The translations under genes and the position numbers were made by a program. A stretch of 64,000 nucleotides of DNA, from NCBI GenBank assembly GCA_965217565.1, contig CBDCIS010000009.1, forward strand, positions 19,544 to 83,543, given 5' to 3'. This stretch comes from Dehalococcoidia bacterium (lineage in GTDB: Bacteria > Chloroflexota > Dehalococcoidia > Lucifugimonadales > CATOSD01). Below the pieces are notes generated by a model that saw only the letters and a program-made list of their open reading frames with translations, searched no databases and was not told where the DNA came from. Below are positions 8,224-46,955 of this stretch, piece after piece (the first letter of the stretch is position 1; each line of letters opens with the position of its first letter).

Positions 8224-9060
8224 ATGACGGACAGGATAAGCGTAGGCGCCGCCGAGATAGTCTCCGTGCTGGACATGATCCCGCCTCCACGCGAACTCGG
8301 ACAGTTCTTCCCCGACGTTCCGCCAGAGAGTTGGACGCCGTACGGGGATGTCCTGGAAGATGGGCTGCTTCAGCTTTACTACGGCTGCTTCTTCGTGCGC
8401 TCCGATGGCAAGACGATACTCGTGGACACCGGCATGGGGCCGGGTCCTCACCCTGATCGGGGCAATCGCACGGGCGACCTGCTCAACCGGCTGCGCCATG
8501 AGGGCGTCCGGCCCGAGGATGTGGACATCGTGGTTCACACCCACCTGCACGCCGACCACGTGGGCTGGAACCTCGATATTTCGAGCAAGCCGCCAACTCC
8601 CAATTTCCCCGGGGCGCGCTACCTCGCGCCGAGACCGGACTGGGAGCACTTCACGAAGCCCGACGTGCTGGAGTCGGCTCCGCAAGTCAGGAACTACGTG
8701 GTTCCATTGCAGGAGCTTGGTCTGATGGATCTCGTGGACAGCGAGCACGTGGTTACAAACGGGGTTACCACGCTGGCGTCGCCGGGTCATACGCCGGGGC
8801 ACCAGGTGATTCTGATTAGCTCGCAGGGAGAGAAGGCCATGATAGTCGGCGACCTGCTGCATAGCCGCGTGCAGGTGCAGGAGCCCGACTGGTGCGCTGG
8901 CGTCGATACCGACAAGCCGCAGAGCCGCCGCAGCCGCGAGGCCGTGCTGAAGCGGGCGGAGAACGAGGGCTACGTGGTCGCGGCGGGTCACTTCCACCCG
9001 CAAGACCACATCGGCAAAGTCGTGCGGCTGGAGGGACGACGCTACTGGCAGGCGCTCTGA
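8224..9060 (+). CDS. MBL-fold metallo-hydrolase (lactonase-like)
   Basis: HTHLHADHVGWN motif, later SPGHTPGH. Confidence 0.8.
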   Translation: MTDRISVGAAEIVSVLDMIPPPRELGQFFPDVPPESWTPYGDVLEDGLLQLYYGCFFVRSDGKTILVDTGMGPGPHPDRGNRTGDLLNRLRHEGVRPEDVDIVVHTHLHADHVGWNLDISSKPPTPNFPGARYLAPRPDWEHFTKPDVLESAPQVRNYVVPLQELGLMDLVDSEHVVTNGVTTLASPGHTPGHQVILISSQGEKAMIVGDLLHSRVQVQEPDWCAGVDTDKPQSRRSREAVLKRAENEGYVVAAGHFHPQDHIGKVVRLEGRRYWQAL

Positions 9061-9139
9061 GCGCGCCCTGCCCTCCCCAATTGGCGCTGAATTCTGCCGG
9101 AAGTCTTAAGCGAGCGACGGTCCGAGGAGTTACGACACG

Positions 9140-10081: not shown

Positions 10082-10109
10082 CGGGGAAACTGAGTGAGCG
10101 CAAACGGAG

Positions 10110-10307
10110 ATGGCGCATACTACTATGGTCACTGGAAATTACATAAGGCAAAAGCGGCTCGAACCACTCAAGGAGAGACAGCCCAAAGAGGGACGTGAAC
10201 AGGGGCGTGAAGAGGCTTATAAGGAGTGGGTCGAATGGTTCGAACGGCGTCAGAAAGCGGAAGAGAGTGGCGAGCCGTTGGATGATCCTCGCCCCGACCA
10301 GCGTTGA
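10110..10307 (+). CDS. 65-aa ORF equal to the C-terminal tail of the 45522-45950 family; possibly a gene remnant
   Basis: MVTGNYIRQKRLEPLKE..EGREQGREEA..EW..AEESGEPLDDPRPDQ aligns with the tail of 45522-45950 at protein and DNA level; the membrane part is missing. Confidence 0.35.
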   Translation: MAHTTMVTGNYIRQKRLEPLKERQPKEGREQGREEAYKEWVEWFERRQKAEESGEPLDDPRPDQR

Positions 10308-10325
10308 GCCGTCTTGTGGAAAAAC

Positions 10326-10355
10326 GAAGCGGGCCGCCGATCGGCGGCCCGCTTC
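10326..10355 (-). terminator. intrinsic terminator between convergent genes
   Basis: 13-bp stem GAAGCGGGCCGCC / loop GATC / GGCGGCCCGCTTC; on the minus strand it is followed by GTTTTTCC. Confidence 0.7.
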
Positions 10356-10380
10356 GCGTTTCTGAGGAGTGCGGTCCTGG

Positions 10381-13300
10381 TTACATGGTCAGACGCTTGT
10401 AGAGGTAGAGCAGCCGCTCCGGCAACGTGTAGATGTCGTCTAGCACCTCGTAGCCCATGTCCTGGCACATCGTCTTCAAGTAGTCGTGGCCGTTCTTGTC
10501 CACTGTGAGACAGAAGGCGTTGATCTCCTGACGCTTGGCCTCGTCGAGAGCCATCTTGGTGTCGTGCACCGCGTACTCCTTCTCCACCCCTTCGCGGCTG
10601 TAGCCCCTGTCCTGCGGACGGCCGTCGCTGATTAGAAAGAGCAGCTTCGTGCGGGCGTCCTGCTTGGCGAGCTTGGAGGTGGCGTGGCGAATCGCCGGCC
10701 CCATTCGGGTGGCGTGCAGGGGGGCGATCCGGTCTATGCGCTTCTTGACCCTGTCCGAGAAGTTTTCGTCCAGGTCCTTGATGGTGTAGAACTCCACGTT
10801 CTCGCGCCCGTAGCCTGAGAAGCCGTATATCCCGTAGATGTCGCCGATCGCCTCCAGAGCGTTGATGATTAGAACGACGGCCTCTTTCTCCACGTCGATG
10901 ATACGCTTGTAGGAACGCCTCATCGCCTCGCCTCGCCGCGTTCTGAGCCACACCATGTATTCCACCGGGTCGTCCGGAGCGTCCCAGTCGTCCGGAGCGC
11001 GCTTGGCATCGTCGATGGCCTCCGCGGTGGACGCGCTGGTGTCCATGAGGAAGGCGACGGCGACGTCGCGCTGCACCTTGTTTCGCCGCCAGTAGAACTT
11101 GTCGCTGGGGCTGGAGCCGGTCTTGATGTCAACGATGAACTCGATGAGGTCGTCGATGTCGATATCCTCGCCGTCCTCCAGTTTGCGCACCTTGCGGAAC
11201 ATCTCCGGCACCATCATTTCGAACTGGCGGCGAATCCTGCCGACGAGCGAGCCGTAGTTGGAGAGGGTTGTTCCAAAGTAGGCGGGATCGCCCTCCGGCA
11301 TGAACTTCTGGCGAACGATGCACCAGCGCGGCTTGTAGTCCTCGGCGCGGAAGTCCCACTCGTCGTAAACGAAGGTCTGCGGCTCTGTGGGATCGAGCGA
11401 CGCGCCATCCTCATCGACGTGAACCAGCGGCCCCTGTCCGAACTCCGGTGTCTGCGGCAGGTTGACGCCGGCCTCTTTGAGCAGGTTGTTGGCGAACAGG
11501 CCGCTGGCGTTCTGGATTTCGCCCTCGACGGCCTGGAGGTCGAGTTCTGCGCTGTTCTTGAGCAACTCTTCGAGCATCTCCTGGGTGATTGGCTCGCCGG
11601 AGGCGTCGGCGTTCTGGTCCTGGGGCTGCATCTTGAGCATACTCAGCAGTTGGGAAAGCTCCGGCTTGAAGTCGCCACGGTAGTCCACCTCTTCAACGGA
11701 GTCGTACTCCTCCTCGCCCTCCGGGCGCAATTCCATCTCCATCCCCATAGCCATCTGTTGAACCAACTGCATCATCTCTTCGGAATCTTCATACTGGTCG
11801 TTCTGGTCTTCTTCCTCGATGTCCATGTCCTCCCACTCTTCGGGAGGCACCTCTTCATTGGGAATCTGGGCGATGATGGCGTAGATCCGGAGCGTGGCCT
11901 CGGCGGCGTCCTCTACGCTTGCCTCGGGATGAAGCATACGCCTGGCGATCCTGGCGACTCTTCGGGCTTCGTCCACGCAGTCCTCCGGTATCGACAGGTC
12001 CTTGTACTGCTGGAGGCTGAGTCTTACGAGGAACTCGATCATGGCTTCACGCATGGGCAGCGACTGCATTTCGGGACGCGCGGTGAGTGAGTCGGACTGA
12101 ACCCGGTTATAGGCACGGCGAATCCCCGGATAATCCAGCTTCACGCGAGCGTCGAGACGGCTGTCCTCTATCACGGTAAAGATGTCGAGAGAGAGCTTGC
12201 GGTCTTCGAACAGGTTGAAGAACCTCTGCATGTCTGTGACCCACCCCTGCTCGAGGCTTTCGGTGTCGATTTCCGGCATTTCCTGGCCCCCGGTGACCCT
12301 TCTGATCTTGTTCTTTTCGAGGTCGTGTCGCAGGTCGTCGAAGAGCGTGGTCTCGGCGTCGAACTCGAAGCCGAAGCTGCCGAACTCCAGGTGTGCCACC
12401 TGGTGGGTGGAGACCACTTTGAACCAGGAGAAGTTCTCTTCCTTCGAGGAGTAGCGGTCAACCGCGACGGGGACGAACACGGTTGAACCCTCGGTGGATG
12501 GGGACTCTCCAGACACCCAGCCGATATTCTTCTCGACAAGCTCTTCACTCGCTGACAACTTGACCTCGGCGCCCGCGAGTCCGCGGCAGTACATCTCCAT
12601 GACGTCCTTGATGCGCGTAAACTCCACGCTGGAGGACAACGCCTCCAGAACGGCCTCCGAATGGGCGGACTCTATCTTGAAGTACGCCAGGCCGCCGTCG
12701 GGGTTCTGGGCGAGGATTCGCGCGCCCTCCTCGAACCACTTTTCAAGCTGGCCCATGGTAATGCTTTCCAGAGCGAACGGAGCCGCCTTTATGAACTCCG
12801 GCACCGAAGGTGGGGAAAATTGCAGCAGTGATTCGGCCATAGACAGAACCTGGGAGTGGTCTTGAGTCTCGAGCCGGCTCAACGCCTGGGAGGTGTCCAG
12901 CATGATCGTTGGAATGTTCGACCCGCCGCTCTTCACCAACTGCTCCGCCATTCTAAGGAAGCGAAGTCTCTGGTCGGATTCTATTCTAGGCAAAGCCCTG
13001 GTGCCGGCGTCGAAGAAACTCTTCACCTCTCGCCAGCCGGTCTCAACGAGCGTGGATGCCAGGGAGATGAACGCGAGCTTGTCATCGCCTATCAGCGGGA
13101 ATAGCTGCTGGCCAAGAGTGAGGCACTCGGAGGCGAGGTCGTAGGAACGGTGGGAGAGCGAGTCCAGAAACGCGACGAACTGCTCGAGCTCCTGGAAGCT
13201 CAGGCTCTCCATCAAGGCCGGACTGGAGTCGAAGAACTTGCACGCGAGCGTGCTGGACTTCCAGGTGCCCTTGTAAAGGCTGCGTCCCAGCTTCGACCAG

Positions 13301-25859: not shown

Positions 25860-26254
25860 AGGCGGCAACCGCAAACGTTTCACCTGGAAGACAGTTCCTT
25901 GATGGGGCTCATCCTCACCTTCCCTGAATGCCCTCGAATATGAGTACCCTTTGTCAGTACTCCCAAAGCAAACGGAACCGGTCTGGGGGATTTTGATGGC
26001 TATGGAGGACGCAGACACGCCGCTCATGCAGGTCAGCCCAAGTGTGGATTTAGCTCGCACTCGGATGGTTGGATGTTATCGCTGGGGGCAAAACTCCTGT
26101 GGGTGTCTCATTTTGATTCATTGTGACTCATTCCTACTTGGGGTCTGTGACGCTGTGAGAGGATTTAGAGGATGTTTCTGAGTTGGAATGTAGTAGGGTT
26201 TGCGGTTGTTGGTATAGGAAATGAGACACTCCCTTCTGTGGGTCTTGCACTGTT

Positions 26255-26399
26255 GTCAGAACCAGGATGTTGAGAGCGGCGAGCCCCTGCGGGGGGTTGT
26301 GAGACTTTGTGAATGGGGATACGGTAGCACGCGCGTTCGCATATGTCAAGGGCATGTCTGTCAGAATCAGGATTGCCGAGCGGCGAGCCCCTACGAGGG
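26255..26399. repeat. two copies of a ~40-nt repeat (GTCAGAAyCAGGAT...GAGCGGCGAGCCCCTrCGrGGG)
   Basis: Copies at 26255-26294 and 26360-26399 in a non-coding stretch. Confidence 0.55.
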
Positions 26400-26601
26400 T
26401 TCGGCAATCGAGGGATTTCCAGGATTCCACTGTCGTTGGGAGAGCTTCGATAATCCGCCTATTCTCACAATCTCAGTATCCTGACGGGTACGACGCAGTA
26501 GGAACAGAGAATTGCGATACTCACGGGCCGTCGATTTGGACACAACCAAGTAATACCAATTTGTGGTGATGCCGCCGTGTTCTCGCCTGCCGCCTTTCTG
26601 G

Positions 26602-26621
26602 ATTCCCGCTTTCGCGGGAAT
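26602..26621. repeat. REP-like palindrome, family 2 (ATTCCCGCTTTCGCGGGAAT)
   Basis: 8-bp stem with TTTC loop. The same core occurs at 37061, 37179, 46077 and, as a variant, 49391. Confidence 0.7.
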
Positions 26622-26862
26622 GACGGTAGGGGTTCTTACGACGCATACGCATTTGGATGATTCGTGGCGCAGTCAAGACGAAATGGTATAAGGTCCAGGC
26701 GGACAGATAGTTGGTTGTGCGAAATCTGCCTCCCCAATGACCGGTTCGATCCCTCTCAGATGGGCCTATTTTGACGATAGACAGAACCATCTTCGAGATG
26801 TGGCTGGTCTTGGTAGGCTCACCTAAGCCCGTTACTGGGCGATCATAACCAGGTCCACCTCA

Positions 26863-27729
26863 TTACCCGCGCGGTCTTGCGACAGCTAGAATACGATCCC
26901 TCAATTCAATCAACTCGGGAAATTCGCAGAGCTTTGCTAACCTGAAACAAAGTGATTCCTTCCGCAGACTGCCTTTAGTCTTCAATCTTAGCAATCGTAT
27001 TACCAAGGGAATCAAGATGTGCTTTCCGGAGATCCAACGAATCCGTTCAGGGTAAGATATTCCAATTCGTTGAATCATATCTTCCAAGAGGTTGTAGAAC
27101 TCTTCAGCGTCGACGGAAGTTTGTTCGCTGGCCACCCGGCCAATGTAATACTGTATCGTTGATGCGTCCGGCAAAATCGGGTCGTTTCCAATGTATTGTT
27201 CGATGGACTGAGGAAAGTGGGTTTCGCGGTCATCCAACTCTTGCAGCAAGGCAGCACACGCGGCTAGGGCGACCGAAGCTTCTACAACCTCGGAAACCCA
27301 CTGATCAAGTTTTAATAAGCCCTTGAATTCAGCTATGCTTGAGTTGGGGGACTGCTCTTGCGCGACCGTGCAGATTGCTGTTTCCTCAACCAAGTAACTT
27401 TCAATATCGTAACGTCGTAACCGATAAAAGAATGGGCTATCAGAGTATGGTTTACTGATGAGTTCGTCGAAATCTCCATCTACCACATAGAATTCTGGTT
27501 TTGCCAAGGAACCATCGCCCTGTATGGCCATTCTTGCAAGAACTTTATTCTTCCCCCCAACGCCTAGAACTCGTGTTATTGTCAGGTCCTCTTGAAATAG
27601 GCGTCTAAAGACCTCCGTGTAAAAGTACTCTTTGTCGGCGTCCTCAACAATAATGGTTATATCGTTGTAGGGACCAAAAAAGGTGGGCCTCGCCGAAAGC
27701 CCCCGGTCACTATATCTAAGCATCGGCAT
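26863..27729 (-). CDS. DUF4435-like (Toprim-type, AriB-like) protein
   Basis: 288 aa; N-terminal acidic strand DITIIVEDADKEYFY; 14-nt overlap with the end of the upstream ABC-ATPase gene. Family call is from memory of the motif pattern and gene context. Confidence 0.5.
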   Translation of the reverse strand: MPMLRYSDRGLSARPTFFGPYNDITIIVEDADKEYFYTEVFRRLFQEDLTITRVLGVGGKNKVLARMAIQGDGSLAKPEFYVVDGDFDELISKPYSDSPFFYRLRRYDIESYLVEETAICTVAQEQSPNSSIAEFKGLLKLDQWVSEVVEASVALAACAALLQELDDRETHFPQSIEQYIGNDPILPDASTIQYYIGRVASEQTSVDAEEFYNLLEDMIQRIGISYPERIRWISGKHILIPLVIRLLRLKTKGSLRKESLCFRLAKLCEFPELIELRDRILAVARPRG

Positions 27730-28275
27730 TGACCTTAGCGCTGATGTCTATGATTGCTTCCTGGGCCGCACCAGCTATCTCGGGAGAATGGGTAGCAATA
27801 ATGAACTGTGCGTTCGGGTTGGCCTCTGTGATGCTGTTAACGTAACGGTTTTGCCAAGCGACATGCAGGGACAACTCCGGCTCATCCACAAACACGGCAA
27901 ACTCTTGCTCGGTGTCGAACTGGAAACATAGGAACGTGAACAATACAAGCAGTTGGAGTTCTCCTGAAGACAAGAGGTGGCTACTGATACGCTGGCCATT
28001 GGGGAGGTCAACCATAAGCTCGAACCCACGCACTAGCCTCAGCCGCTTCCTGTTGTCACTGAGAAAGCTGTTGACCGACTCCAAAAACTTGTTGGATCGA
28101 CGGATTACCTTGGACCGATCCGATTCATACTTCTGTATCATCGGGATCAACCGCTCGATACGGGAAGCTATAGAGGATGCATCAAATATCCAATCTAACC
28201 ACTTGCTGGCATTGGGGTCTTCAGCGAAATTCTCCGGAATCGTCTGACCTCCTAACTGGTCGACGACATCTCTAA
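27716..28275 (-). pseudogene. ABC-type ATPase (AriA-like), fragment 4 of 4 (C-terminal)
   Basis: Frame open up to the IS junction. Contains signature LSSGELQ, Walker B FVDEPELSLH, H-loop IATHSPE. Confidence 0.8.
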
Positions 28276-29126
28276 GAGGGTGTGTGAGAAGTTCAAATTA
28301 GGTTGGTGCTAAGCGTCGGAGCATGAGATGAATCATAGCTATATGGGTCCACGCCTCGGTTGTATCGGACAGAGCTTCGTAGTCCTTGCTCATCCGACGG
28401 CACCTGCTGAGCCACGCGAATGTTCGTTCGACCACCCATCTTCGCGGCAGCACTTGAAAACGGTGGCTGTCCCTGGGGCGCTTGACAATCTCGAGTGCCC
28501 AGCCTGTCAGGGCCCAGACCCACTCGACCAGCTTTCCAGCATAGCCAGCATCGGCCCAGACCAACCTCATGCGGGGAAACCTCCCTATCAATTTATCGAT
28601 GACCAGCTTCGCCCCATCCCTATCCTGGATATTGGCAGGATGCACCACCACCGCCAGCAGCAACCCCATGGTATCTACAATGATATGTCGCTTTCGACCG
28701 TTGACCTTCTTGCCAGCGTCATAGCCACGAGGCCCCCTTTTTCCGTAGTCTTGACCGACTGGGGCTGTCTATGATAGCAGCGCTAGGTGTCGGGTTCCTC
28801 CCCTCGGCCTGCCGGACCTTGACTCGGAGAGCGTCATTGGCTCGTTCCCATGTACCATCCTCTCTCCACTCCCGAAAATACCACCATACAGTACCCCAAG
28901 GCGGGAGGTCATGCGGCATGGCTCGCCACGTGCAACCGTTGCGCAGAACGTATAGAATGCCGTTGACGACTTCCCGCAGGTCTACAGTACGTGGCCTTCC
29001 CCCAGTTTTGGCTGCCGGGAGTAGCGGAGCGAGCATCTTCCACTGTTCATCAGTCAGGTCACTGGGGTATGCTTTGCGTTTCATGCCTCCATTCTAATAC
29101 ATATCCAAGACTTCTCACACACCCTC
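28276..29126 (-). mobile_element. IS5-A, copy 2, inverted relative to copy 1
   Basis: Same 17-bp inverted repeats and identical ORF translations (orfA 28719-29084, orfB 28298-28768). Flanks are TAA (28273-28275) and TTA (29127-29129). Confidence 0.9.
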
Positions 29127-29538
29127 TTAGGCGACGAAAGTAATCCTCACTGAGGTTCCGAGCATTACTTAACCCCAAGTTTCCTAACGCCGTTCCGACT
29201 CTAGTGCGCCGCTCTTCGAGCTCTGATCGAGTCCAAACTCGTGAGGCAAGTTCTGATCCTTCTTGTTCGAACAACGAGGCAAAAATATTATTGCGCAATT
29301 CATCGTTTAAAGACGACACTTCGAATTGTTCCTGGCGAAACACACGTTCCGCCAAAGTCAACACTTGTGATATCGGTAGATATCCTGCCGCAGTCGAACG
29401 CCTAGAACGTTGACGGTAACGAGATTCTCGGTCTTCCGTCCATCGGCGGTTTAAGGGTAAGTACAGAGGGCCGGGCAACTCGCTCAAATGGCGAAGTACG
29501 GTATTATTTCTTCGGTCCTCCAAGAACCTTGAAACTAA
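29127..29538 (-). pseudogene. ABC-type ATPase (AriA-like), fragment 3 of 4
   Basis: VSRFLEDRRNN...SEDYFRRL, lying between the IS630-family and IS5-A insertions. Confidence 0.7.
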
Positions 29539-30705
29539 TACCATTTCATGTTGACGAGGCCGCATAGTGTGCCGGAAGACTTCGCGTTGTGTGTTCGATC
29601 CAACTCCACGCCGTGAGCGACCGCACCCGACCCGGATCAGATTCAAGCTCACTCAGGTAGGCGTCAACCGCCTTCATCTTCTCCTCTATGCTCCCGTATA
29701 TCCTGCCCTCCACCCACCTGCGGACCTCTTGGAAGACCCGCTCAGCGGGATTCAGCTCAGGACTATATGCAGGCTGCACGATCGTTGCCACTCCAACAGT
29801 CCGTACTATCTCACCCCGGTGACCACGCGCTCCATCCCACACCAGGGCCTCGATGTCCGAGTGATGCTTCAGGCCATCGACTGCCACCGCTATAGCCGCA
29901 GACTTCATCGAATCGATCCAACCCCACAACAGCTTGCCCCTCCGAACGTCTACCACCAGGAACAGGTACATCCACTTGTAGACCATCTGCACTCGCTGAT
30001 GCACCTTCACTCCACGACGACCCCACACCCTACGCACCATCCCCCGCAGGCCCACTCGCATCTCATCGGCAAAGCCAAAGGCCGTCTCAGAACTCACGCC
30101 CGCTTCGGCAAGGCAACAACCAAGCCCCCCTTTTTCCACGACTCCTGCGCAGCTACGTCTGCCTTCTCATGACGGCCCCTCGGGACCTTCGGGCTGCATC
30201 CCAACCTCTCAAGCAGACCATAGACGCTGCCCGACTTGTAGCTCACCCCATACTCGGACTCTATCCAGTCCCTGATCTCTCCCGCCGTTCTGAACCGTCC
30301 CGTCGACACCTCCTCGGTCAACTCCTGCTCTTCATCTGTGCTCAGAAAGCGCGGTTTGCCCATGCCTCCCATCTTGTGGGACAACACTCCTTCCACACCT
30401 CCCTCTCTATACCAGCCCACCCACGTCTGTACCGTCCGGTAGTGGACTCCCACCGCTCTTGCCGCCTCACCGAACTGCCATCCCGACCGCACCAGCCACA
30501 GTCCATGGAGTCGAGTACGAAGGCTAGTGTCACGTTCTGCCCGGTAGGCCGCCTTCAGCGCCTCCGGTGTATCCTCCCCATGCCAATCTATTCGAAGCGG
30601 TCGTCCGATCATCTGATACCCTCCAACACTGTATGTCGGCTAGAGCATGGATGAACTATTAGGACATCGCTAGATACTTCCAGGTCTTGTTATCATCAAA
30701 TGGTA
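29539..30705 (-). mobile_element. IS630-family element (IS630-A), 1167 bp
   Basis: Ends are TACCATTTCATG (29539-) and CATCAAATGGTA (-30705). Direct TAA at 29536-29538 and 30706-30708. orfA (30094-30612) is an HTH part; orfB (29546-30139) is a DDE part with LNPAERVF. orfB lies in the -1 frame at an A5G6 run (30125-30135). Confidence 0.85.
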
Positions 30706-31020
30706 TAAGTCGGATGGTTCCTCAACGACACGGGCCGCACTAAAGTGGGTCAGTTCCGGCCTGCTTACGATAGGTATTTCCAATGGGTCATCTATGCCTT
30801 TGACTCTTATCGTTACGGCGTCCTCAGCGCGCTTCGCCGTGACTCTTTGAAATTTTCGCTCCCCAGAGTTGGTATACGCGATGTTGATTTCATCGAACTC
30901 GATACCAGAAAGGAGGTAGGCTGCTGGGATTCCGTCCTGCACGGATGCCGGTGACAGCGCCCAAGCCATCGCATTCAGGATAGATGTCTTACCTGAACCG
31001 TTCACCCCGATGAGGATGTT
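30706..31020 (-). pseudogene. ABC-type ATPase (AriA-like), fragment 2 of 4 (Walker A)
   Basis: NILIGVNGSGKTSILNAMAWAL...EEPSDL; bounded by the IS3 left end and the IS630-A right end. Confidence 0.8.
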
Positions 31021-32348
31021 TGAGGTGGACCCAGAAAACTGGACAGGTGGCTAAGTGAGAGTCCTGCTCCTAAACTAAGGGCAGCTGTTGCTGTCTGGAA
31101 GGAGAAGGACATGGCGCAAGGAAGAAGGAAGCACAGCCCGGCCTTCAAGGCCAGGGTGGCCCTGGATGCGGTGAAGGGGGAGGAGACAGTGGCCCAGTTG
31201 GCCGCCCGGTACGAAGTCCACCCGGGCCAGATTCAAGCCTGGAAGAAGGTCCTGACCGGGGGTGCCGCCGGTGTGTTCGGTAACGGTCAGGACCACAAGG
31301 CCAAGAGGACGCTGCCTTGGTCGCCCGGTTGTACCAGGAGATCGGCCAGTTGAAGGTGGAGCGGGATTTCTTGGCGGAGAGGTCCGGTCCATGAACCCGG
31401 CCCGGCGGCGGGAGATGGTGGACCGGGAGCATCCCTCGTTGCCGATAGTGGGACAATGCGCCCTGCTGGGGGTGAGCCGCTCCAGCATATACTACCGTCC
31501 CAAGGGGGCTTCGGAAGAGGAGCTGTCGCTGATGCGGGAGATAGACCGGCAGTAGAAGGCGACCCCCTTCTATGGGTCGCGGCGGATGAAGGTCTGGCTG
31601 GAGCGGCAGGGTATAGTGGTGAGCCGGAAGCGGGTGCAGCGGCTGATGCGTGTCATGGGACTGCGGGCCATCTACCGGCGACCTCGTACCAGCCAACCGG
31701 CGCCGGGAGTGCGGGTCTATCCCTATCTGTTGGGGAAGGCCGAAATCACCAGACCCAACCAGGTGTGGGCCTCAGACATCACCTACCTGCCCATGGCCCG
31801 GGGATTCCTCTACCTGGTGGCCGTCATGGACTGGCACAGCCGGTATGTCCTGTCCTGGCGCCTGTCCAACACTCTGGAGGCAGGCTTTTGCGCCGAGGCC
31901 CTGACAGAGGCGCTGGAGAGGGGAAGGCCGGAGGTGTTCAACACTGACCAGGGGAGCCAGTTCACCAGTCAGGAATTCACCCAGGTCCTTCAGGACCGCG
32001 GTGTGAAGATCAGCATGGACGGGAAGGGAGGTACCAAGACAACATCTTCGTCGAGCGGCTGTGGCGCACGGTGAAGTACGAGGAGGTGTACCTGAAAGCC
32101 TACGCCAGCGCGGGGGAGGCCCGGAGGGAACTGGGAGCTTACTTCCGGTTCTACAATGACCAGAGGCCCCATCAGGCCTTGGGATACAAGACACCCGGGG
32201 AAGTGTTCTCTGAAGACACGGCGCCCCAAAATGAAGAGTCAGCAGCTGAGAGGTGGTCGCCGGAAGCAGACGTGGTATCTTATGCGGGAGCTGCGGGACC
32301 CTCACTTAGCTCCACCTTAATTCTGTCCAACTAGTCGGGTCCACCTCA
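31021..32348 (+). mobile_element. IS3-family element, copy A (degenerate)
   Basis: TGAGGTGGACCC...GGGTCCACCTCA ends. Relative to copy B it has single-nt deletions near 31076, 31306 and 32037 that break orfA and orfB. It shares the in-frame TAG at 31553-31555. Confidence 0.85.
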
Positions 32349-32684
32349 CACCACGCGGGTGCTCTTGCGCCGCAGCATGGACTTGAAGGCGACGGCGTGC
32401 TCGCGCTTTCTGGTGAAGCGGCTGAACTTCCAGACGAGAATCACGTCGAAGGGAGCCTTCGGCTTGCTGCCCTCCTCGATCATCTCCCTGAACTGGGGCC
32501 TGTCGGCGACGCGGCCGCTCTCGGCCTCGTCCACGTACTCGCGGGCCACGGAATAGCCGTTGGCCCTGGCGTAGTCCTTGAGCGCCCGCAACTGGGCGGA
32601 CACGGACAGGTCCACGTCCTGCCGGTCGCTGGACACCCTAGCGTTGAGAGCCGCCTGGGTAAGGGGTTGTACGTGCTTCTTCAT
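32349..32684 (-). pseudogene. serine recombinase, N-terminal resolvase-domain stub cut by IS3 copy A
   Basis: ALNARVSSDRQ catalytic-serine motif; the ORF stop is supplied by the IS terminus. Confidence 0.7.
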
Positions 32685-32725
32685 ATCTTTCTCCCTTGCG
32701 ATGGTTTGTACTGGTGCGGGCTGCT

Positions 32726-33052
32726 CTACTCTTGGGTGGAATAGGCGACGGGGTGGACTTGGAGCCGGAAGCCCAGCACACGCAGCACCCTGAGCACGGT
32801 GTTGAACTCTGGGCTGGCGCCGGCTCGCATAGATTTATAGAGGCTCTCGCGGCCCAGGCCGGTCTCGTGGGCCACCCGTCTCATGCGGTGCGCGCGGGTC
32901 ATTCCCCCCAGGGTGCCCATGATGCGGTTCAGATCGCCCGCTTCCAGGGCCATGTTCAAGGCAGTGGTCATGTCCTCTGCGGTCGCCGGGTATGTCGCTG
33001 GTGTTTCTTTGCTGTCCATCGCCGATTTCACACCGTCGTGAGTTTCGCCCAT
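32726..33052 (-). CDS. HigA-type addiction-module antidote (HTH) protein, no adjacent toxin gene
   Basis: ...MTRAHRMRRVAHETGLGRESLYKSMRAGASPEFNTVLRVLRVLGFRLQV matches the pattern of the antidote family normally found downstream of a RelE/HigB-type killer gene. Confidence 0.6.
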   Translation of the reverse strand: MGETHDGVKSAMDSKETPATYPATAEDMTTALNMALEAGDLNRIMGTLGGMTRAHRMRRVAHETGLGRESLYKSMRAGASPEFNTVLRVLRVLGFRLQVHPVAYSTQE

Positions 33053-33377
33053 ACCCAGCTATAGTATCTGGTTGGATACCTAGTACGTAAGGGGCAACTG
33101 CCAGTCTGAAGCGGAGGGACGAATACTGTGAAAGAACCTCTGTAACACAACCCAACTAGGTGATTGCAAAGATTCAGCGGGAACCTTACCATATGACACA
33201 CAGGCACAGTTCACAGGAACACAGGAGGGGCTTCCTTTCATTCTCGGGCGATTGCGGACCAGTGGGATACAGGGACCACCGCTGTCCGCCAACATAGTCC
33301 GCCCCAAGAAAAACAACCGGCGAGCGATGAGTACAAGGGGAAGCGTTATACCGAAGGCATTACTCAATCACTCTTGT

Positions 33378-33386
33378 TGATATAAT
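33378..33386 (+). promoter_or_regulatory. extended -10 element TGATATAAT
   Basis: TGnTATAAT 31 nt upstream of GTG 33417. Confidence 0.35.
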
Positions 33387-33416
33387 TCGCTCTTCGATTG
33401 CACTAAGGAAGAACAG

Positions 33417-34574
33417 GTGAACGCTATGCATGAAATAAGACGGGTCGGGATAGATGGATTCAGGCGACTACGCGATGTTTCAATTGATATGCGACCGATG
33501 ATGGTAATGGTCGGGGCTAATGGTTGTGGCAAAACATCGTTCATGGACGCTTTGTCGTTACTTGCCTCCTCTGCAGAAGGGGGATTAAATCGACGGCTCA
33601 ATGACATGGGAGGTGCTTCCGAGGCTACTACCCGGGGGCGACACCAGGATATGTCGTTCAGCGCTGATATGGAAGTTCCAGACCATAATCCGCTCAAGTA
33701 CAGTATGAGTATCGCCGCGCAGGGCCATACTTATTCTGTGTCACAAGAATCGCTCACGCAAACCAGACCTGGCTATTCGCAGCCGTTCAAACACATCGAA
33801 TCTACTTATCGAGATATTCGGTACTTCGACACTGAAGAGGGACGTCTCCTCAGACCAAATTGGCAGTTCAATTACTTCGAGTCCTCTCTCTCGCAAGTCC
33901 CAAAGCTGTTCAGGGAAGCGGAGGAATTGAGACGCTCCCTCAGTGCGGTCACCCAGTACCATGTTCTCGACGTGGGAATACGTGCCCCAGTAAAACTACC
34001 TCAGCAATTGCGACCGGTTGATCTCCCAGGTGAAAACGGCGAGAACTTGGTGTCGTTCCTCTTTAATATTCGTGAAACAAACTCCGATAAATACGAGGCA
34101 ATAGAGGATACTTTACGCGTAGCTTATCCAGGCTTTGATTCCCTCAATTTTCCGATAGCGGCCGCTGGGATGATGTCAATGACCTGGAAAGAAAAGGCAT
34201 TTCGGAGTCCCATTTACATTCATCAACTTTCAGAAGGGACGTTACGGTTTCTCTGGTTGATTTCTCTTCTACAGAGTCCAGGCCTTACAACAGTTACTAT
34301 GATAGATGAGCCAGAGGTAAGCCTACATCCCGAATTGCTGGCGATACTCGCAGAGCTAATGCGTGAAGCGTCGCGCAAAACCCAGATAATTGTGGCTACA
34401 CACTCTGACCGCCTAATCCGCTTCCTTGAGACGAAAGAAGTGGTTGTCATGGACATAAAGGAAGATGGAGAGACATCCATGACTTGGGCCGACACGTTGG
34501 ATCTGGATGCGTGGTTGGCAGACTACACCCTGGACGAGGTATGGCAGATGGGAAGAATGGGAGCCAGGGCATGA
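33417..34574 (+). CDS. ABC-type (AAA_15/AAA_21-like) ATPase
   Basis: Walker A GANGCGKTS, LSEGTLR signature-like motif, Walker B MIDEPEVSLHP, VATHSD H-loop. Confidence 0.8.
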   Translation: MNAMHEIRRVGIDGFRRLRDVSIDMRPMMVMVGANGCGKTSFMDALSLLASSAEGGLNRRLNDMGGASEATTRGRHQDMSFSADMEVPDHNPLKYSMSIAAQGHTYSVSQESLTQTRPGYSQPFKHIESTYRDIRYFDTEEGRLLRPNWQFNYFESSLSQVPKLFREAEELRRSLSAVTQYHVLDVGIRAPVKLPQQLRPVDLPGENGENLVSFLFNIRETNSDKYEAIEDTLRVAYPGFDSLNFPIAAAGMMSMTWKEKAFRSPIYIHQLSEGTLRFLWLISLLQSPGLTTVTMIDEPEVSLHPELLAILAELMREASRKTQIIVATHSDRLIRFLETKEVVVMDIKEDGETSMTWADTLDLDAWLADYTLDEVWQMGRMGARA

Positions 34575-35185
34575 AGATAACCTTGATGGTTGAGGGTAAG
34601 ACCGAGAGGGCTTTCCTCCCGCACTTGAGAAATCACCTCCAGCAACAACTGGCTGGAAGGATGCCCAACCTGGACCCGGCCCCGTATCATGGACGAATCC
34701 CTACAGGCGAAAAGCTCGCGAGGACGGTACAGAGATTATTGTCGGGTCGCTACGCTTCAGACCACGTAATAGCTCTGACCGATGTTTACACTGGGATGAC
34801 TCCCGGCGACTTTCTTGATGCAGCGGACGCCAAATCTAAGGTGCGTCAATGGGTTGGTAACGAACCGAGATTCCATCCTCATGCAGCTCAGTACGATTTT
34901 GAAGCGTGGCTACTTCCATATTGGTCTCGAATCCAACAACTAGCAGGTCACAACCGAACAAGACCTAGTGGCTCCCCTGAACAAGTTAACCACACTAACC
35001 CTCCTTCTTATCACATCAGACAAATCTTCCGAAACGGCAGTTGCCGCGACGACTATGTAAAACCCAGAGACGCTGGTCGTATTTTGCGAGAGCAAGACTT
35101 ATCATTAGCAATAAACCAGTGTAGTGAACTAAAAGCCTTAATTGACTCAATCCTGAGAGTTTGCAATGGTATAGCGACACCCTGA
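34571..35185 (+). CDS. DUF4276-like (Toprim-like) protein
   Basis: 204 aa, N terminus MKITLMVEGKTERAFL; ATGA start/stop overlap with the ATPase gene. Family call is from motif pattern, size and the recurrent ATPase neighbourhood. Confidence 0.5.
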   Translation: MKITLMVEGKTERAFLPHLRNHLQQQLAGRMPNLDPAPYHGRIPTGEKLARTVQRLLSGRYASDHVIALTDVYTGMTPGDFLDAADAKSKVRQWVGNEPRFHPHAAQYDFEAWLLPYWSRIQQLAGHNRTRPSGSPEQVNHTNPPSYHIRQIFRNGSCRDDYVKPRDAGRILREQDLSLAINQCSELKALIDSILRVCNGIATP

Positions 35186-35515
35186 GTGGGTTCCGTTTGC
35201 TCACTGCTGGTGGCCATTTTAGGCCCATTCTTGGTAAATCCAATCGGCCCACATCTTCTAAGCGGGCCCCTCAAGGTTAGTGTACCCTCGATGCCCTGAG
35301 AAGGCTAACAGGCTGCCCGGTCGCCCCTCAAAGATGGTTCTGCCTCCGTCCCGACGCGTCACGCTACGGGAATCGCGAGTCCTCGGTGTGTTGACAGGCT
35401 GCCCAGCCACAGCTCGAAGATGGTGGAATCTACCGTACGCGGTGGTGGGCTTATGGGGTAGCACACACATGAGCGCCCCTATGGGAACCTGCTGGATTGT
35501 AAAGGGCGGAGTGAT

Positions 35516-36846
35516 TGAGGTGGACCGAGAAAACTGGACAGGTGGCTAAGTGAGAGTCCTGCTCCTAAACTTAAGGGCAGCTGTTGCTGTCTGGAAGGAG
35601 AAGGACATGGCGCAAGGAAGAAGGAAGCACAGCCCGGCCTTCAAGGCCAGGGTGGCCCTGGATGCGGTGAAGGGGGAGGAGACAGTGGCCCAGCTGGCCG
35701 CCCGGTACGAAGTCCACCCGGGCCAGATTCAAGCCTGGAAGAAGGTCCTGACCGGGGGTGCCGCCGGTGTGTTCGGTAATGGTCAGGACCACAAGGCCAA
35801 GAGCGACGCTGCCTTGGTCGCCCGGTTGTACCAGGAGATCGGCCAGTTGAAGGTGGAGCTGGATTTCTTGGCGGAGAGGTCCGGTCCATGAACCCGGCCC
35901 GGCGGCGGGAGATGGTGGACCGGGAGCATCCCTCGTTGCCGATAGTGGGGCAATGCGCCCTGTTGGGGGTGAGCCGCTCCAGCATATACTACCGTCCCAA
36001 GGGGGCTTCGGAAGAGGAGCTGTCGCTGATGCGGGAGATAGACCGGCAGTAGAAGGCGACCCCCTTCTATGGGTCGCGGCGGATGAAGGTCTGGCTGGAG
36101 CGGCAGGGTATAGTGGTGAGCCGGAAGCGGGTGCAGCGGCTGATGCGTGTCATGGGACTGCGGGCCATCTACCGGCGACCTCGTACCAGCCAACCGGCGC
36201 CGGGAGTGCGGGTCTATCCCTATCTGTTGGGGAAGGCCGAAATCACCAGACCCAACCAGGTGTGGGCCGCCGACATCACCTACCTGCCCATGGCCCGGGG
36301 ATTCCTCTACCTGGTGGCCGTCATGGACTGGCACAGCCGGTATGTCCTGTCCTGGCGCCTGTCCAACACTCTGGAGGCAGGCTTTTGCGCCGAGGCTCTG
36401 ACGGAGGCGCTGGAGAGGGGAAGGCCGGAGGTGTTCAACACTGACCAGGGGAGCCAGTTCACCAGTCAGGAATTCACCCAGGTCCTTCAGGACCGCGGTG
36501 TGAAGATCAGCATGGACGGGAAGGGGAGGTACCAAGACAACATCTTCGTCGAGCGGCTGTGGCGCACGGTGAAGTACGAGGAGGTGTACCTGAAAGCCTA
36601 CGCCAGCGCGGGGGAGGCCCGGAGGGAACTGGGAGCTTACTTCCGGTTCTACAATGACCAGAGGCCCCATCAGGCCTTGGGATACAAGACACCCGGGGAA
36701 GTGTTCTCTGAAGGCACGGCGCCCCAAAATGAAGGGTCAGCAGCTGAGAGGTGGTCGCCGGAAGCAGACGTGGTATCTTATGCGGGAGCTGCGGGACCCT
36801 CACTTAGCTCCACCTTAATTCTGTCCAACTAGTCGGGTCCACCTCA
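35516..36846 (+). mobile_element. IS3-family element, copy B
   Basis: TGAGGTGGACCG...GGGTCCACCTCA ends. orfA is 35607-35891. orfB is in the -1 frame from ATG 35888 to 36832 but carries an in-frame TAG at 36050-36052. Confidence 0.85.
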
Positions 36847-36924
36847 GTTTACACCTGGACGGAAGGATAACTTCAGGTCCAAATACCCATGTAGTTTCTT
36901 GAAATGTGCGGTTCGAATTATCAT
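36847..36924 (-). pseudogene. ABC-type ATPase (AriA-like), fragment 1 of 4 (start codon and first 26 codons)
   Basis: ATG at 36924; MIIRTAHFKKLHGYLDLKLSFRPGVN continues directly into NILIGVNGSGKT at 31020 once the composite unit is removed. Confidence 0.75.
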
Positions 36925-37007
36925 ATATTCACTGTCCTGTTAGCTGTGTTGCCCTCGATTATTTACGAGTTAGAGTTGTATCGCAACATGGCCACTAAAT
37001 TGCCGAA

Positions 37008-37128
37008 CTAGTACCATTTCCAGATGTATTTGATAATATCTCGGCTGCCTTCCACACTGGATTCCCGCTTTCGCGGGAAAGACGGATAGTATTCGATGCC
37101 TGTCATCTTCAAGTAGAAACGGTACTAG
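37008..37128. mobile_element. MITE copy a (~121 bp)
   Basis: Terminal inverted repeats CTAGTACCATTTCCAG / ...GAAACGGTACTAG; internal family-2 REP palindrome at 37061-37080. Confidence 0.7.
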
Positions 37129-37245
37129 TACCGTTTCCAGCTAGTTTTGACAATAATCGAGGCTGTCCTCGACTCTGGATTCCCGCTTTCGCGGGAATGA
37201 CGGTCACTGTTCAGTATTTGTCACTTTCAAGTGGAAACGGTACTA
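37125..37245. mobile_element. MITE copy b, abutting copy a
   Basis: CTAGTACCGTTTCCAG...GGAAACGGTACTA; shares the CTAG at 37125-37128 with copy a; its distal CTAG is split by IS630-B. Confidence 0.7.
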
Positions 37246-38480
37246 GTGGTTCAACTTTTTTGTATTGATGGGTAGAGTGACTTTAGCTTGATGCGCGCAT
37301 CCTCGGTAGTGAAGCGCCAATCCACTCGTATAACATCCCGGTTGCGTTGATTCTGCCAAGCATTGACCTCGCCGCGCAGGATGTCTTGATTGGCAATCCG
37401 TCGGTCCAGGCACTGTCGAGCCAGCACACCGATCTCTATCTCCGCCATATTCAACCAACTCCCGTGTTTGGGAGTGTAGTGTATCTCCAGTCGCTCAGCT
37501 ATACGCCTCGCCTCAGCAGGCTCGAATGCCTCGTATAGCGAGGACAGCTTGTGAGTGTTGAGATTGTCCATTACCAGCACGATCCGGTCTCTGTCAGGGT
37601 AGTCCTCGTCGACCAGTTTCTTTATCACATGCGCCCAGTCCACCTTCGTGCGGCGCTCTCTGAGCTCGACTCGGCGCCATCCGTCCAACGGTGCAAACAG
37701 CATGAACAGGCTGCTCACTCCATTGCGCTCGTATTCGTAGTCGTATGCCGCCGATAAGCCGGGCGCTGTGGGACGCGGCACTCGCGTCTCCTTGACTTGC
37801 TGTTTGCTCGTCTCATCCATGCACACCAGAACCTCATTCCCATCGTACGGCCGTTGGTAGACCTCCAGTACGTCTTCCATCGCGCACACAAACTCCGCGC
37901 TCTGACCGGGCGGGATGCACCAACTCTGCTTCAGCCACGGCTTCAGCTCGTTTTTTTAAGCGCCTGGCGAACCGTCTCGGCGCTAATGGTCTCGACTATC
38001 TCACACTCGACCAACTCGTCAGCCAACAGCTTCAGGGTCCAACTGGCACGCCCCTCCGGCGGTTCCCTGCAGGCCATCGCTATCAACCGTGCTTCACCTT
38101 CGCCGTCCAGTCTCTTTTGACGCCGACGCAGTTGCTTTTTGCGATTCAGCGCAGACTCGACCCCCTCCTCCACACAGCGCTTGCGTATTCGCTCGACCGT
38201 TGACTGTCCCACACCGAGCGCGCTGGTGATGTCCGCGTCCTTCATTCCCCCGTCCGAGCGTGACTCATCGCTCATCAGCAGAATGCGCGCATGGGTCTGT
38301 TTGTACGCCGCAGACCGACCGCGTGAGACCAAGCCGTTGAGTTCCTGTTGTTCGTCGGTAGTCAGTCTGATACGGTACTTCTTGGTAGACATCATGGTTC
38401 CTCCTCGGTTCAACGTTACGATTGAACCCCCAAGAGCAACAATGACTATCATGGTCTTCATTTCAATGATGTTGGACCAC
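37246..38480 (-). mobile_element. IS630-family element (IS630-B), 1235 bp
   Basis: Inverted repeats GTGGTTCAAC / GTTGGACCAC. TA duplication inside a CTAG target (37244-37245, 38481-38482). orfA is 37943-38461; orfB is 37251-37889 in the -1 frame at A AAA AAA (T7 at 37951-37957). Confidence 0.85.
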
Positions 38481-38918
38481 TAGTTTAATCTTTCCAACTG
38501 CTATCACATGGGCATCCGCCGCCTTACTTCCAGCACAGGATCAAGTGGGTCCCACTCCACCAAATGTATCCGCTTCACCTAGTCAGCTCCCTATTGGCCT
38601 CCAGCACGTCATCCTGCAGTGGCTGAATATGGGCATCCATCCTCATACCGTTCAGGGTTTACATTTCCAGGGGCAGTGTCAGTAGAAATCCCGTAGCAAT
38701 TCTACTTTCAACTCCCAGCGACGCAACCTTGCCCAAGCCCGGTGAAGCCCGGCCCCCCGGATTCCTTCTCGGCCCCCGACCTCCGCTACTAGTGTACCAG
38801 TGCCGCCGGTCCGAAGGCGTGTCTTGGGTCGAGCTTTTCCTCCAGGGTAACAACTTGGCAGCCATATCGGCTGAAGCAGCACCCGAAAGGGGTGCCGCGA
38901 ACACTCCGACAACTACCA

Positions 38919-39206
38919 CTAGGAACCTATCCAACCCCCGTTGCATCCAAGTCGACTACCCATGAGAACCGTACTTTTTCGTGTTGATTGAAAGACAGAG
39001 AACTCAGTCTCGAACCAAACCAGCGTCGGGAAGTCGATCCGGTCGAGGCCGGTGTGCACCAGCCTGGGGTGGCAGATGAGCATGTCGATGCCCTGCTTCA
39101 CGCTGTCCGCCACCCACGCCTCCCGCCGTTCGGGGGCCACCGCCTCGGCCTTCATCACCGCCACTGTGGTGCTCTGATTGTCTATGATGTGTGGGGGTGC
39201 CAGCAT
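38919..39206 (-). pseudogene. remnant of a helicase C-terminal domain
   Basis: ...VDMLICHPRLVHTGLDRIDFPTLVWFETEFSVF resembles helicase motif V/VI regions. It lacks an N-terminal part, and the downstream continuation (RFSW) is in another frame. Confidence 0.35.
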
Positions 39207-39269
39207 GGGGATATGCCTCCGGGAGTGCTCTTCAGCGCATTTCCGCTTGGACTAGGTGTAGTCCCTCCC

Positions 39270-40307
39270 CTACTCTTGCGACGGGATCGCGAGCACCGGC
39301 TCGCCGGACGTGCGGATTAGCGCCTCGGTTACGCTGCCCAGCACCCACCGCGTGAGACCGGAGCGCCCGTGCGTAGCCAGCACGATGATGTCGTTGGATA
39401 GCTGGCGGGACAGGTCCGTTATGGCAACGGCGGGCGAGCCGTTTACCACCTTGTGGTCGACCTCGATGCCCTTCGTCGCCAGGTTTGCCGCTACGCCCGC
39501 GAGATAGTCTCCCGCCTCCGTCTCGACCTCTACCTGGATTTCGGCGTCGATCGCGTAGGACATGCCTTCGATGTATGCCGAGGAGTTCGCCGCCAGTTTG
39601 AGCGCCTTGACCAGCGTCACCTCGAGGGCCATTTTTGCGGCGAGAGCCTCGACGAATGGCAGGGCGCTCTCTGCCAGGTCGGAGCCGTCCAGGGGCGCGA
39701 GCAGGCTGGTGAGTGTCGCACCCGGTTCCTGGTGGTACTTCCCGGCGCGCTCCGGCGTGATGGTCAGCACGGGAATGTTGACCGAATGCATGACCTTGTC
39801 GGTCACGCTGCCCAGCAGCCCGCGGCCGATCAGGTTCCTGCCGTGTGTGGACATGGCGATCAGGTCGCAGCCCTCGCGTTCGGCGGCTTCCGCGATCTGC
39901 TCGGCCGCCGCGCCGATGGTTACCATTGCGCTCGCTTTCACCCCCTGGGCCTCGAGCCTGTCGGCGACTTCCCTCAAACGCTGCAACGCCCTCTGTTCCT
40001 GGCTCTCGATCACCTGGGTCAGGTAGGAGCCGCCCTGCTCGTGGGCGTAGGTGCGGGCCCGTTCCCTATCCGCGGGTGAGACCTCGTCGGACGACGTAGC
40101 GCCCATCATGCGCCGCGGCAGCTCCAGCGCGTCGGGATCGATCGCCGACATGAGAGTTATCGGAATGTCCATTCCCCTGGCTATCTGCACGACGTAGGAA
40201 AGGATTCCTTCAGCCATCTCAGAGCCGTCCAGCGGAACCAGTATCTTCGTGAATATGTTGCTGGCCTCCTGATTAAGGGCACGACTTTGGTGATACATCC
40301 GAATCAC
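39270..40307 (-). CDS. universal stress protein with two tandem UspA domains
   Basis: Two repeats ending in ...HGRxxLxxxxLGSVTxxVxxxxxxPVL. Confidence 0.8.
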   Translation of the reverse strand: MIRMYHQSRALNQEASNIFTKILVPLDGSEMAEGILSYVVQIARGMDIPITLMSAIDPDALELPRRMMGATSSDEVSPADRERARTYAHEQGGSYLTQVIESQEQRALQRLREVADRLEAQGVKASAMVTIGAAAEQIAEAAEREGCDLIAMSTHGRNLIGRGLLGSVTDKVMHSVNIPVLTITPERAGKYHQEPGATLTSLLAPLDGSDLAESALPFVEALAAKMALEVTLVKALKLAANSSAYIEGMSYAIDAEIQVEVETEAGDYLAGVAANLATKGIEVDHKVVNGSPAVAITDLSRQLSNDIIVLATHGRSGLTRWVLGSVTEALIRTSGEPVLAIPSQE

Positions 40308-46022: not shown

Positions 46023-46144
46023 CTAGTACTGCTTCCAGCTAGTTTTGACAATAATTGAGGCTGTCCTCGATACTGGATTCCCGCTTTCGCGGGAATGACG
46101 ATCACTGTTCGGTGCTTGTCAGTTTTAAGTGGAAGCGGTACTAG
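46023..46144. mobile_element. MITE copy c
   Basis: CTAGTACTGCTTCCAG...TGGAAGCGGTACTAG; internal palindrome at 46077-46096; its distal CTAG is also the target of the adjacent IS. Confidence 0.7.
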
Positions 46145-46955
46145 GGCCTGTTCACACTAACGCAACGCATCGAAGATGAGCGCAAACAGGATGAACCCAA
46201 GGAAGAGAGCGTCCAGCTTCTCAAAGCGAGAGAAGATGCGCCGAAAGCCCTTCAACCGTCGAAACAACCGCTCGATTTCGTTCCGACGCTTGTACATCTC
46301 CCGGTCGTACTGCCAAGGGTCAACCCTCGTGCTCAGGGGCGGAACTATCGGGGTGAACCCCAGGGCCAACGCCAGTTGGCGGGTCTCATTCCCCTCGTAT
46401 GCCCGGTCCATTAACAGGAACGGGTTCTGGTCCTGTGTTCCGAGGCGCTTTAGCAGCTTTCGCCCCTCCAGCGCATCGTGGGCCTGTCCGGGAGAAAGGG
46501 AGAACGTCACGGCTGTTCTAGCATCCGCGGCAACCATATGAATCTTGGTGGTCCAGCCGCCACGGGACTTGCCGATGGACTGGGGTCCGTTTTTTTAACG
46601 CACCGGTTCCATCGGGATGGACCTTGACTATGGTACTGTCCATGGAAACCGCTTCTATCTTGATACGCACTATGTGCTCTCGTTGAAGATACTCGAAAAC
46701 CCGGTCGAGCACACCGTTCTTGGACCACCGGTTCATCCGGGTGTAGACGGTGTGCCAGTTGCCAAATCGAGGCGGCAATCCCCGCCATTTGCAGCCTTGC
46801 TCGGCGACATAGAGGATAGCGTTGAGTACTTGCAGGTTCGACAGGCTGACGTTGCCACGCTGAACGGGAAGGATCGGCGCAATTCGTTGGTACTGAACTT
46901 CGGTGATTTCCATTCTCGGATTGTAACATAATTTGGCTATTAGTGTGAACAGACC
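46145..46955 (-). mobile_element. IS5-family insertion sequence, second type (IS5-B), copy 1, 811 bp
   Basis: Inverted repeats GGCCTGTTCACACTAA / TTAGTGTGAACAGACC between CTAG repeats (46141-46144, 46956-46959). orfA is 46518-46913, orfB is 46157-46537. A7 tract (T7 at 46590-46596) puts orfB in the +1 frame. Confidence 0.85.

Follow-up and report, generated by a model that had tools for sequence, protein, structure and literature searches.

A probable IS3-family composite transposon carrying a candidate ATPase/TOPRIM defence pair inside the ariA gene of a Dehalococcoidia PARIS locus

The window analyzed here, a 64,000-nucleotide stretch of contig CBDCIS010000009.1 from a Dehalococcoidia bacterium, contains at positions 31021-36846 a 5,826-bp block in which two directly oriented copies of an IS3-family insertion sequence (IS) enclose 3,167 bp of cargo (Table 1). 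The block interrupts ariA, the ATPase gene of a PARIS system (AriA/AriB). Its cargo consists of the truncated gene of a serine recombinase, a solitary HigA-like gene, and two genes encoding an ABC ATPase and a DUF4276 protein, the latter pair corresponding to HEC-01, a candidate defence system.

Table 1. Features of the interrupted PARIS locus and of the IS3-bounded block, in window coordinates.
Feature	Position	Strand	Remarks
AriB, DUF4435 TOPRIM nuclease, intact	26863-27729	-	Pfam, PADLOC; aligned with L004 AriB
AriA fragment 4, Walker B / C-terminal ATPase half	27716-28276	-	
IS5-family (IS427-like) element inside AriA	28277-29124	-	
AriA fragment 3	29125-29538	-	
IS630-family element inside AriA	29539-30705	-	TAA duplication at flanks
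AriA fragment 2, Walker A GVNGSGKT	30706-31020	-	
Target duplication, left GTT	31018-31020		single GTT in empty site of L004
IS3-family copy A	31021-32348	+	1,328 bp
Serine recombinase, N-terminal 112 codons	32346-32684	-	Pfam Resolvase 1.3e-19; cut by copy A right end
HigA-type helix-turn-helix (HTH) gene (PF21716), no partner toxin	32726-33052	-	Pfam
ABC ATPase, HEC-01A-like, intact	33417-34574	+	gene callers start at ATG 33426
DUF4276 protein, HEC-01B-like, TOPRIM fold, intact	34571-35185	+	overlaps ATPase stop by 4 nt
Non-coding right end of cargo	35186-35515		35186-35288 common to L001 and L003
IS3-family copy B	35516-36846	+	1,331 bp
Target duplication, right GTT	36847-36849		single GTT in empty site of L004
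AriA fragment 1, start codon to codon 25	36850-36924	-	
Second IS630-family element, ~90 bp upstream of AriA start codon	37013-38478	-	

Copies A and B are 98.9% identical and differ at 15 positions (12 substitutions and three one-base indels), which are scattered over the full length of the element. Both start with TGAGGTGGACC and end with GGGTCCACCTCA, sequences that occur at only these two places in the window (chance expectation 0). The element ends have the form 5'-TG...CA-3' and constitute imperfect inverted repeats (TGAGGTGGACC...GGTCCACCTCA). Each copy has two open reading frames (ORFs): orfA matches the Pfam family HTH_Tnp_1 (8.7e-8), and orfB, which matches rve (2.5e-23), HTH_21 and rve_3, lies in the -1 frame relative to orfA and is open upstream of the orfA stop codon. 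With a length of ~1.33 kb, this -1 register, TG...CA ends, and a 3-bp target duplication, the copies conform to the IS3 family; unlike other members, they share a nonsense codon and have no obvious A6G-type slippery heptamer in the overlap of orfA and orfB, as inspected by eye. Homologous IS3 copies are plentiful in Dehalococcoidia genomes, with many per genome, and an exact 41-mer from the left end of the IS found no match among the GTDB representative genomes.

The trinucleotide GTT directly adjoins the block on either side. The inner flanks are unlike each other, with CAC from 32349 next to copy A and GAT at 35513-35515 next to copy B, and the inner junctions read ...CCTCA/CACCACGCGG on the side of copy A and ...GGAGTGAT/TGAGG on the side of copy B. 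The same IS is therefore present twice, in direct orientation and with identical ends, around unrelated inner flanks and within a single outer duplication, which is the layout of a composite transposon. This arrangement had been read from the sequence in an initial annotation, which took the block to be a composite IS3-cargo-IS3 element that arrived as a single insertion with a 3-bp duplication.

Comparison with related loci bears out both points. Two related contigs from ENA metagenome assemblies (L004 and L005) carry the target uninterrupted; they are colinear with the window at 93-94% nucleotide identity in five blocks (26771-28276, 29125-29538, 30706-31021, 36847-37012, and 38479-38768), and at the IS3 site they read ...ATGAGGATGTTTACACCTGG... 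(93% nucleotide identity) with one GTT only. Removal of 31021-36849 from the window in silico gives a continuous ORF on the minus strand, MIIRTAHFKKLHGYLDLKLSFRPGVNILIGVNGSGKTSIL..., that runs into the Walker A motif. To reconstruct the entire gene, each of the three elements inside ariA was cut out with one copy of its duplication, which yielded a 1,356-nt ORF with no gap, stop codon, or frameshift relative to ariA of L004. The encoded protein is identical to L004 AriA at 429 of 451 residues, with 69 differences at the nucleotide level. The intact 451-residue homologue on L004 and L005 (P0134), which was found with the reconstructed protein, is identical to the window over the junction, and E. 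coli AriA (PDB 8UX9, 464 residues) aligns with the reconstruction at both ends and without a gap over the junction. The joined flanks thus behave as one uninterrupted gene when compared with intact homologues, as the initial annotation had anticipated, and the relatives that hold the cargo carry it at other loci and not at the ariA site of the window, which is empty in L004 and L005. A 33-mer spanning the empty site had no match in the JGI metagenomes. Among 72 distinct homologous IS copies from Dehalococcoidia genomes, 36 are flanked by a perfect 3-bp duplication, as compared to 1 in 64 expected by chance, and a duplication of this length is the norm for this IS. When set against the ancestral ariA gene, the block is certainly one IS3-bounded insertion.

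The target itself had been described as a PARIS-like gene, and this assignment holds for both components of the system. The interrupted ATPase gene matches the PADLOC model for AriA (1.9e-35), and the best PDB matches of its product are AriA structures 8UX9 and 8V45, covering the N- and C-terminal halves, a result obtained with the reconstructed gene only. The adjacent gene matches DUF4435 in Pfam (7.7e-21) and AriB in PADLOC (3.2e-21), and overlaps ariA as it does in the relatives. The locus is PARIS: both PADLOC models are matched, and the reconstructed AriA (451 residues) aligns with the 464-residue E. coli protein. It departs from known PARIS systems in that ariA lies in four pieces next to an intact AriB gene.

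The content of the cargo was likewise as first described, namely the stub of a recombinase gene, a HigA-like gene on its own, and an ATPase/DUF4276 pair with both genes intact, each recognized by Pfam or PADLOC. The stretch 32348-35288 is colinear with positions 8926-11863 of a 4.3-Mb metagenome contig (L003) at 96.5% nucleotide identity, and the same gene order is found at ~85% identity on another contig (L002). The stop codon of the recombinase stub lies inside the end of copy A, and the L003 recombinase (553 residues, full length) continues past the exact point at which copy A cuts the gene. Given this colinearity and the full-length recombinase of L003, the cargo derives as one unbroken piece from a serine-recombinase island, with the IS as the cause of its truncation. 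The relatives L001 and L003 do not share the 227 bp directly preceding copy B (35289-35515). The HigA-like gene is without a toxin in L003 and L002 as well, and a remnant of a HigB toxin gene was looked for upstream of it and not found; it is more likely to be the HTH regulator of the island than an orphaned antitoxin. A scan of the cargo for sigma-70 promoters returned no site. Divergence from L003 is uneven: it amounts to ~2% in the HigA-like, ATPase, and DUF4276 genes (dS, synonymous substitutions per site, 0.04-0.08) as compared to ~12% in the recombinase stub (dS 0.44), a jump that points to a recombination breakpoint between the recombinase (32349-32684) and the remainder of the island (32726-35288). 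On L003, in an odd arrangement, two large serine recombinase ORFs (6117-8048 on the plus strand and 7601-9262 on the minus strand; 643 and 553 residues, 56% identical) are convergent and overlap by ~450 bp, and the gene caller dropped one of the pair.

The ATPase of the cargo matches the HEC-01A profile of PADLOC over its full length (1.8e-70) and AAA_21 of Pfam (5e-35), and the protein encoded next to it matches DUF4276 (5e-27) and HEC-01B (2.4e-11), so that the adjacent pair defining HEC-01 is present. HEC-01, which stands for 'Hma-embedded candidate 01' in PADLOC, has been defined as the combination of an ABC ATPase with a TOPRIM protein (bioRxiv 10.1101/2024.01.29.577857), and DUF4276 has been assigned to the Toprim superfamily (PMC12065111). 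In line with this, an AlphaFold2 model of the DUF4276 protein (pLDDT 87, pTM 0.84) has as its best fold match in the PDB the C-terminal TOPRIM nuclease region of Burkholderia OLD (6NK8, E 7.7e-5, TM 0.55), followed by Xanthomonas OLD, and residues E8, D71, and E111 are invariant in 49 DUF4276 homologues. The ratio of non-synonymous to synonymous substitution rates (dN/dS) relative to L003 is 0.27 for the ATPase and 0.24 for the DUF4276 gene; judged by their sequences, both genes are intact and conserved. OLD proteins combine ATPase and TOPRIM domains in one polypeptide, as opposed to the two separate, overlapping genes found here, and the modelled fold marks the pair as a putative split OLD/PARIS-like ATPase-nuclease, that is, a candidate system. 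With its DUF4276 partner of OLD-like TOPRIM fold and its gene overlap of 4 nt, the pair is closest to HEC-01 and to split OLD-like ATPase/TOPRIM pairs such as Mad3/Mad4 of MADS. By analogy with OLD and PARIS, the ATPase would probably act as a sensor that controls a metal-dependent nuclease.

Homologues of the ATPase with 97% identity exist, and the pair belongs to a cassette with recurrent boundaries (~33155/33335 to 35274/35288 in the window) that recurs, again with 97% identity, in four or more further contexts (L001, L003, L089, and L090). The scan of GTDB genomes with the ATPase protein recovered only relatives of 61-67% identity, and an exact look-up of the protein with two alternative starts gave no match. 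The neighbours of the cassette are often type IIG/ISP methylase-nucleases and helicases; the pair in the window differs from those of L001, L003, and L090 in that such a methylase/helicase neighbourhood does not accompany it. In L089, an IS66 element splits the ATPase gene of the cassette. The cassette appears to move on its own.

The coding capacity of the two IS3 copies bears on how the block could have moved. Both copies contain a TAG codon in orfB (TAG AAG at 36050-36055 in copy B and 31553-31558 in copy A). Among 18 homologous copies inspected, all 16 that were readable have a tyrosine at this position, within the motif DRQYL(A/E/D/S)TPF(Y/F)GSR, as opposed to DRQ*KATPFYGSRR in both window copies; the difference stems from three adjacent base changes, TAC YTG to TAG AAG. 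Relative to the closest copy (L006, TAC TTG), each changed base is the complement of the original (CTT to GAA). The TAG AAG sequence reflects either a multi-nucleotide change of an unusual kind or a base-calling artefact of a systematic nature. Copy A has lost one base in orfA (~31307) and another in orfB (~32025, GGGG to GGG); both deletions are frameshifts, and both are derived relative to copy B and the outgroups. The orfA of copy B is undamaged, the shared TAG at 36050 is the sole defect of its orfB, and a 1-bp insertion lies in its 5' leader when the outgroups serve as reference. The 1-bp indels may be sequencing errors, an explanation that is less likely for the shared TAG. Taken as assembled, neither copy produces OrfAB, and any movement therefore required transposase supplied in trans by another copy. 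Copy B also carries a private C>G change at position 12 of its inner inverted repeat (35527), which is seen neither in copy A nor in any of the four close relatives that were aligned (A in L010); if real, it could weaken the inner end and thereby favour use of the outer ends.

We consider it probable that the 5,826-bp block is an IS3-family composite transposon that moved as a unit via its two outermost ends. Two copies of one IS3-family element would have come to flank 3.2 kb of a serine-recombinase island, with one of them cutting the recombinase gene at codon 112. IS3 transposase, presumably provided in trans by another copy, would then have acted on the two outermost ends, left in copy A and right in copy B, and the entire unit would have moved by the copy-out/paste-in mechanism of the family, through a circular intermediate. 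It would have landed at codon 26 of ariA in the resident PARIS system, duplicating GTT and delivering the intact ABC ATPase and DUF4276 TOPRIM-fold module as cargo. Use of the outer ends in one transposition event is the most likely explanation for the observed arrangement.

The structure is reminiscent of classical IS-flanked composite transposons such as Tn6330 (ISApl1-mcr-1-ISApl1), which also consist of two direct IS copies with captured cargo, one outer duplication, and unrelated inner flanks, and in which the ISs decay after capture. In contrast to these, the element described here is built from an IS3-family IS with a 3-bp duplication, resides in an uncultured member of the Dehalococcoidia, is known from a single insertion, and has no intact transposase as assembled. 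Its cargo is a candidate defence pair with a recombinase stub rather than a resistance gene.

Several observations weigh against transposition of the block as a unit, or against its role as a carrier of defence genes. Neither copy as assembled encodes a complete OrfAB, and the element hence lacks the intact transposase expected of an autonomous transposon. Neither the unit nor its inner junctions turned up a second time in searches that could not extend to the source genome itself: a 24-mer spanning the junction of IS and recombinase had no match in the JGI metagenomes, and exact look-ups of the junction-spanning recombinase stub protein and of the OrfB fragment matched no entry of the protein collection. 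The initial annotation had suggested a search for the same IS3-cargo-IS3 unit at other loci; its structure at ariA stands, and we infer movement as a unit from a single event. Moreover, recombination of a circle into a solo IS3 copy in ariA yields the same product, and the sequence cannot separate the two routes; the differences between copies A and B were examined for a discriminating pattern, of which none is to be expected and none was seen. With respect to the cargo, a HEC-01 representative protected against no phage tested in the only published assay (bioRxiv 10.1101/2024.01.29.577857). The module can thus still be called defence-like, as it originally was, but defence itself does not follow, and protection against phage is a candidate function of the cargo.

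Such a two-step origin is possible but less likely: a solo IS3 would have entered ariA, generating the GTT duplication, and a circle comprising IS3 and cargo would have been integrated into it by homologous recombination, the donor circle perhaps arising by recombination between two IS3 copies that flanked the cargo in the donor island. The product of this route would match the observed structure in full, including an outer duplication that dates from the first insertion. No transposase would have to act on 5.8 kb of DNA, in keeping with transposase genes that appear defective. Relatives of the IS3 element are abundant in Dehalococcoidia genomes and provide plentiful substrates for recombination, and the failure to find a second composite copy is also compatible with it. 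However, the route requires more events, with three IS copies and two recombinations, and the only other ariA alleles found are empty, with no solo-IS3 allele among them. It is very improbable, on the other hand, that the block is an assembly artefact, in which the true genome would contain an IS3 copy in ariA and a separate IS3-cargo element, and the assembler would have threaded the cargo into ariA through the repeat. The source is a metagenome-assembled contig, and related contigs resemble low-coverage long-read assemblies (with names such as ctg..._4x_l). Long-read assemblies commonly contain errors in homopolymer length, the kind of difference that accounts for two of the three indels between copies A and B (TT versus T, GGGG versus GGG), and the accuracy of single bases may therefore be limited. 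Against an artefact, 12 substitutions separate the copies, and comparison with the outgroups shows derived states that are private to each, which is unexpected of one repeat traversed twice. These private variants also answer the concern, raised with the initial annotation, that the repeats had been collapsed, and establish two physical copies. In addition, an artefactual path would have to leave ariA and return precisely to the other half of the gene, and other repeats were resolved on this contig, among them an IS5 pair whose members are 100% identical. Transposition of the IS3-bounded block as one unit accordingly remains the account we prefer.

The IS3-bounded block is not the only mobile element at this locus. 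Within ~2.7 kb of ancestral sequence (window 26771-38768), there are four independent IS insertions from three families; three of the elements divide ariA into four pieces, so that an intact pair of PARIS genes is no longer present, and the system presumably no longer functions. Insertion of the IS3 block into ariA is clear; that the block inactivated the gene, as had been proposed, does not follow, since IS5- and IS630-family elements also lie inside ariA and a fourth IS lies upstream. The order of the insertions cannot be read from the sequence, and the IS3 block is therefore not established as the inactivating event. After excision of the elements in silico, ariA shows no further stop codon or frameshift, and because the gene is otherwise undamaged all insertions are probably recent. 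The IS5-family copy must have moved very recently, given that it is 100% identical over 848 bp to an inverted twin at 279-1126, 27 kb away; the IS is evidently active, and this inverted pair could also invert the segment between its members. The clustering of hits in the PARIS locus likewise suggests recent events, with AT-rich targets, neutrality after the first hit, and selection as possible causes. The PARIS locus has a G+C content of 42-53% in a window of 60%, which marks it as foreign DNA and may favour TA-type targets.

Four insertions from three IS families, one of them with a 100% identical twin, in an otherwise intact ariA gene could also be taken to mean that PARIS is being silenced under recent, repeated selection rather than by chance decay, for example because it blocks incoming mobile elements, and that the composite element delivers an analogous ATPase/TOPRIM module as a functional replacement. 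We regard this scenario as improbable. In the relatives, a large, divergently transcribed serine recombinase gene adjoins intact PARIS (L004 2856-4340 and L005 8031-9656), and homology to the window ends at 38768, about the start of that gene. Given this neighbour, PARIS itself is probably the cargo of an island.

Defence systems, cas genes among them, are systematically documented targets of IS transposition (PMC10359306). The insertion reported here resembles these cases in that an IS disrupts an immune gene; it differs in that one insertion also brings a candidate immune module. Both IS hits in defence genes and IS-flanked cargo are established, and no new mechanism is involved. Rather, the locus offers a clean natural example of ISs that both destroy and import candidate immune genes at one site, and it does so with a complete set of evidence, in which a target duplication is joined by an empty site, a target that is restored exactly, and an island of the donor type, in an uncultured, IS-rich lineage of the Dehalococcoidia. 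The arrival of a candidate ATPase/TOPRIM module inside a resident ATPase/TOPRIM system is notable in itself. The locus serves to illustrate the turnover of defence islands, and its HEC-01 cassette is one that moves between at least five contexts.

A partly palindromic 22-nt motif, ACCATCTTCGAGNTGTGGCTGG, is present just downstream of AriB (26786-26807, minus strand) and again in the right end of the cargo (35403-35424, plus strand). It was considered as a recombinase attachment site linking the PARIS and cargo islands and rejected: it is not confined to these islands, and their recombinases are no more than 24-31% identical. Further copies are located on L004 (7137-7158 and 11487-11508) and at unrelated Dehalococcoidia loci (L025, L056, and L082), and we regard the motif as a dispersed repeat; Rfam returned no match to it or to any other part of 26000-39500. 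Beyond the PARIS locus, the whole window is dense in ISs. A tandem unit of 118-122 nt from the end of the IS630-family element (37007-37246) is also found at 46 kb (46023-46144), and the segments 46141-46889 and 62373-63122 are 100% identical repeats that probably represent another IS.

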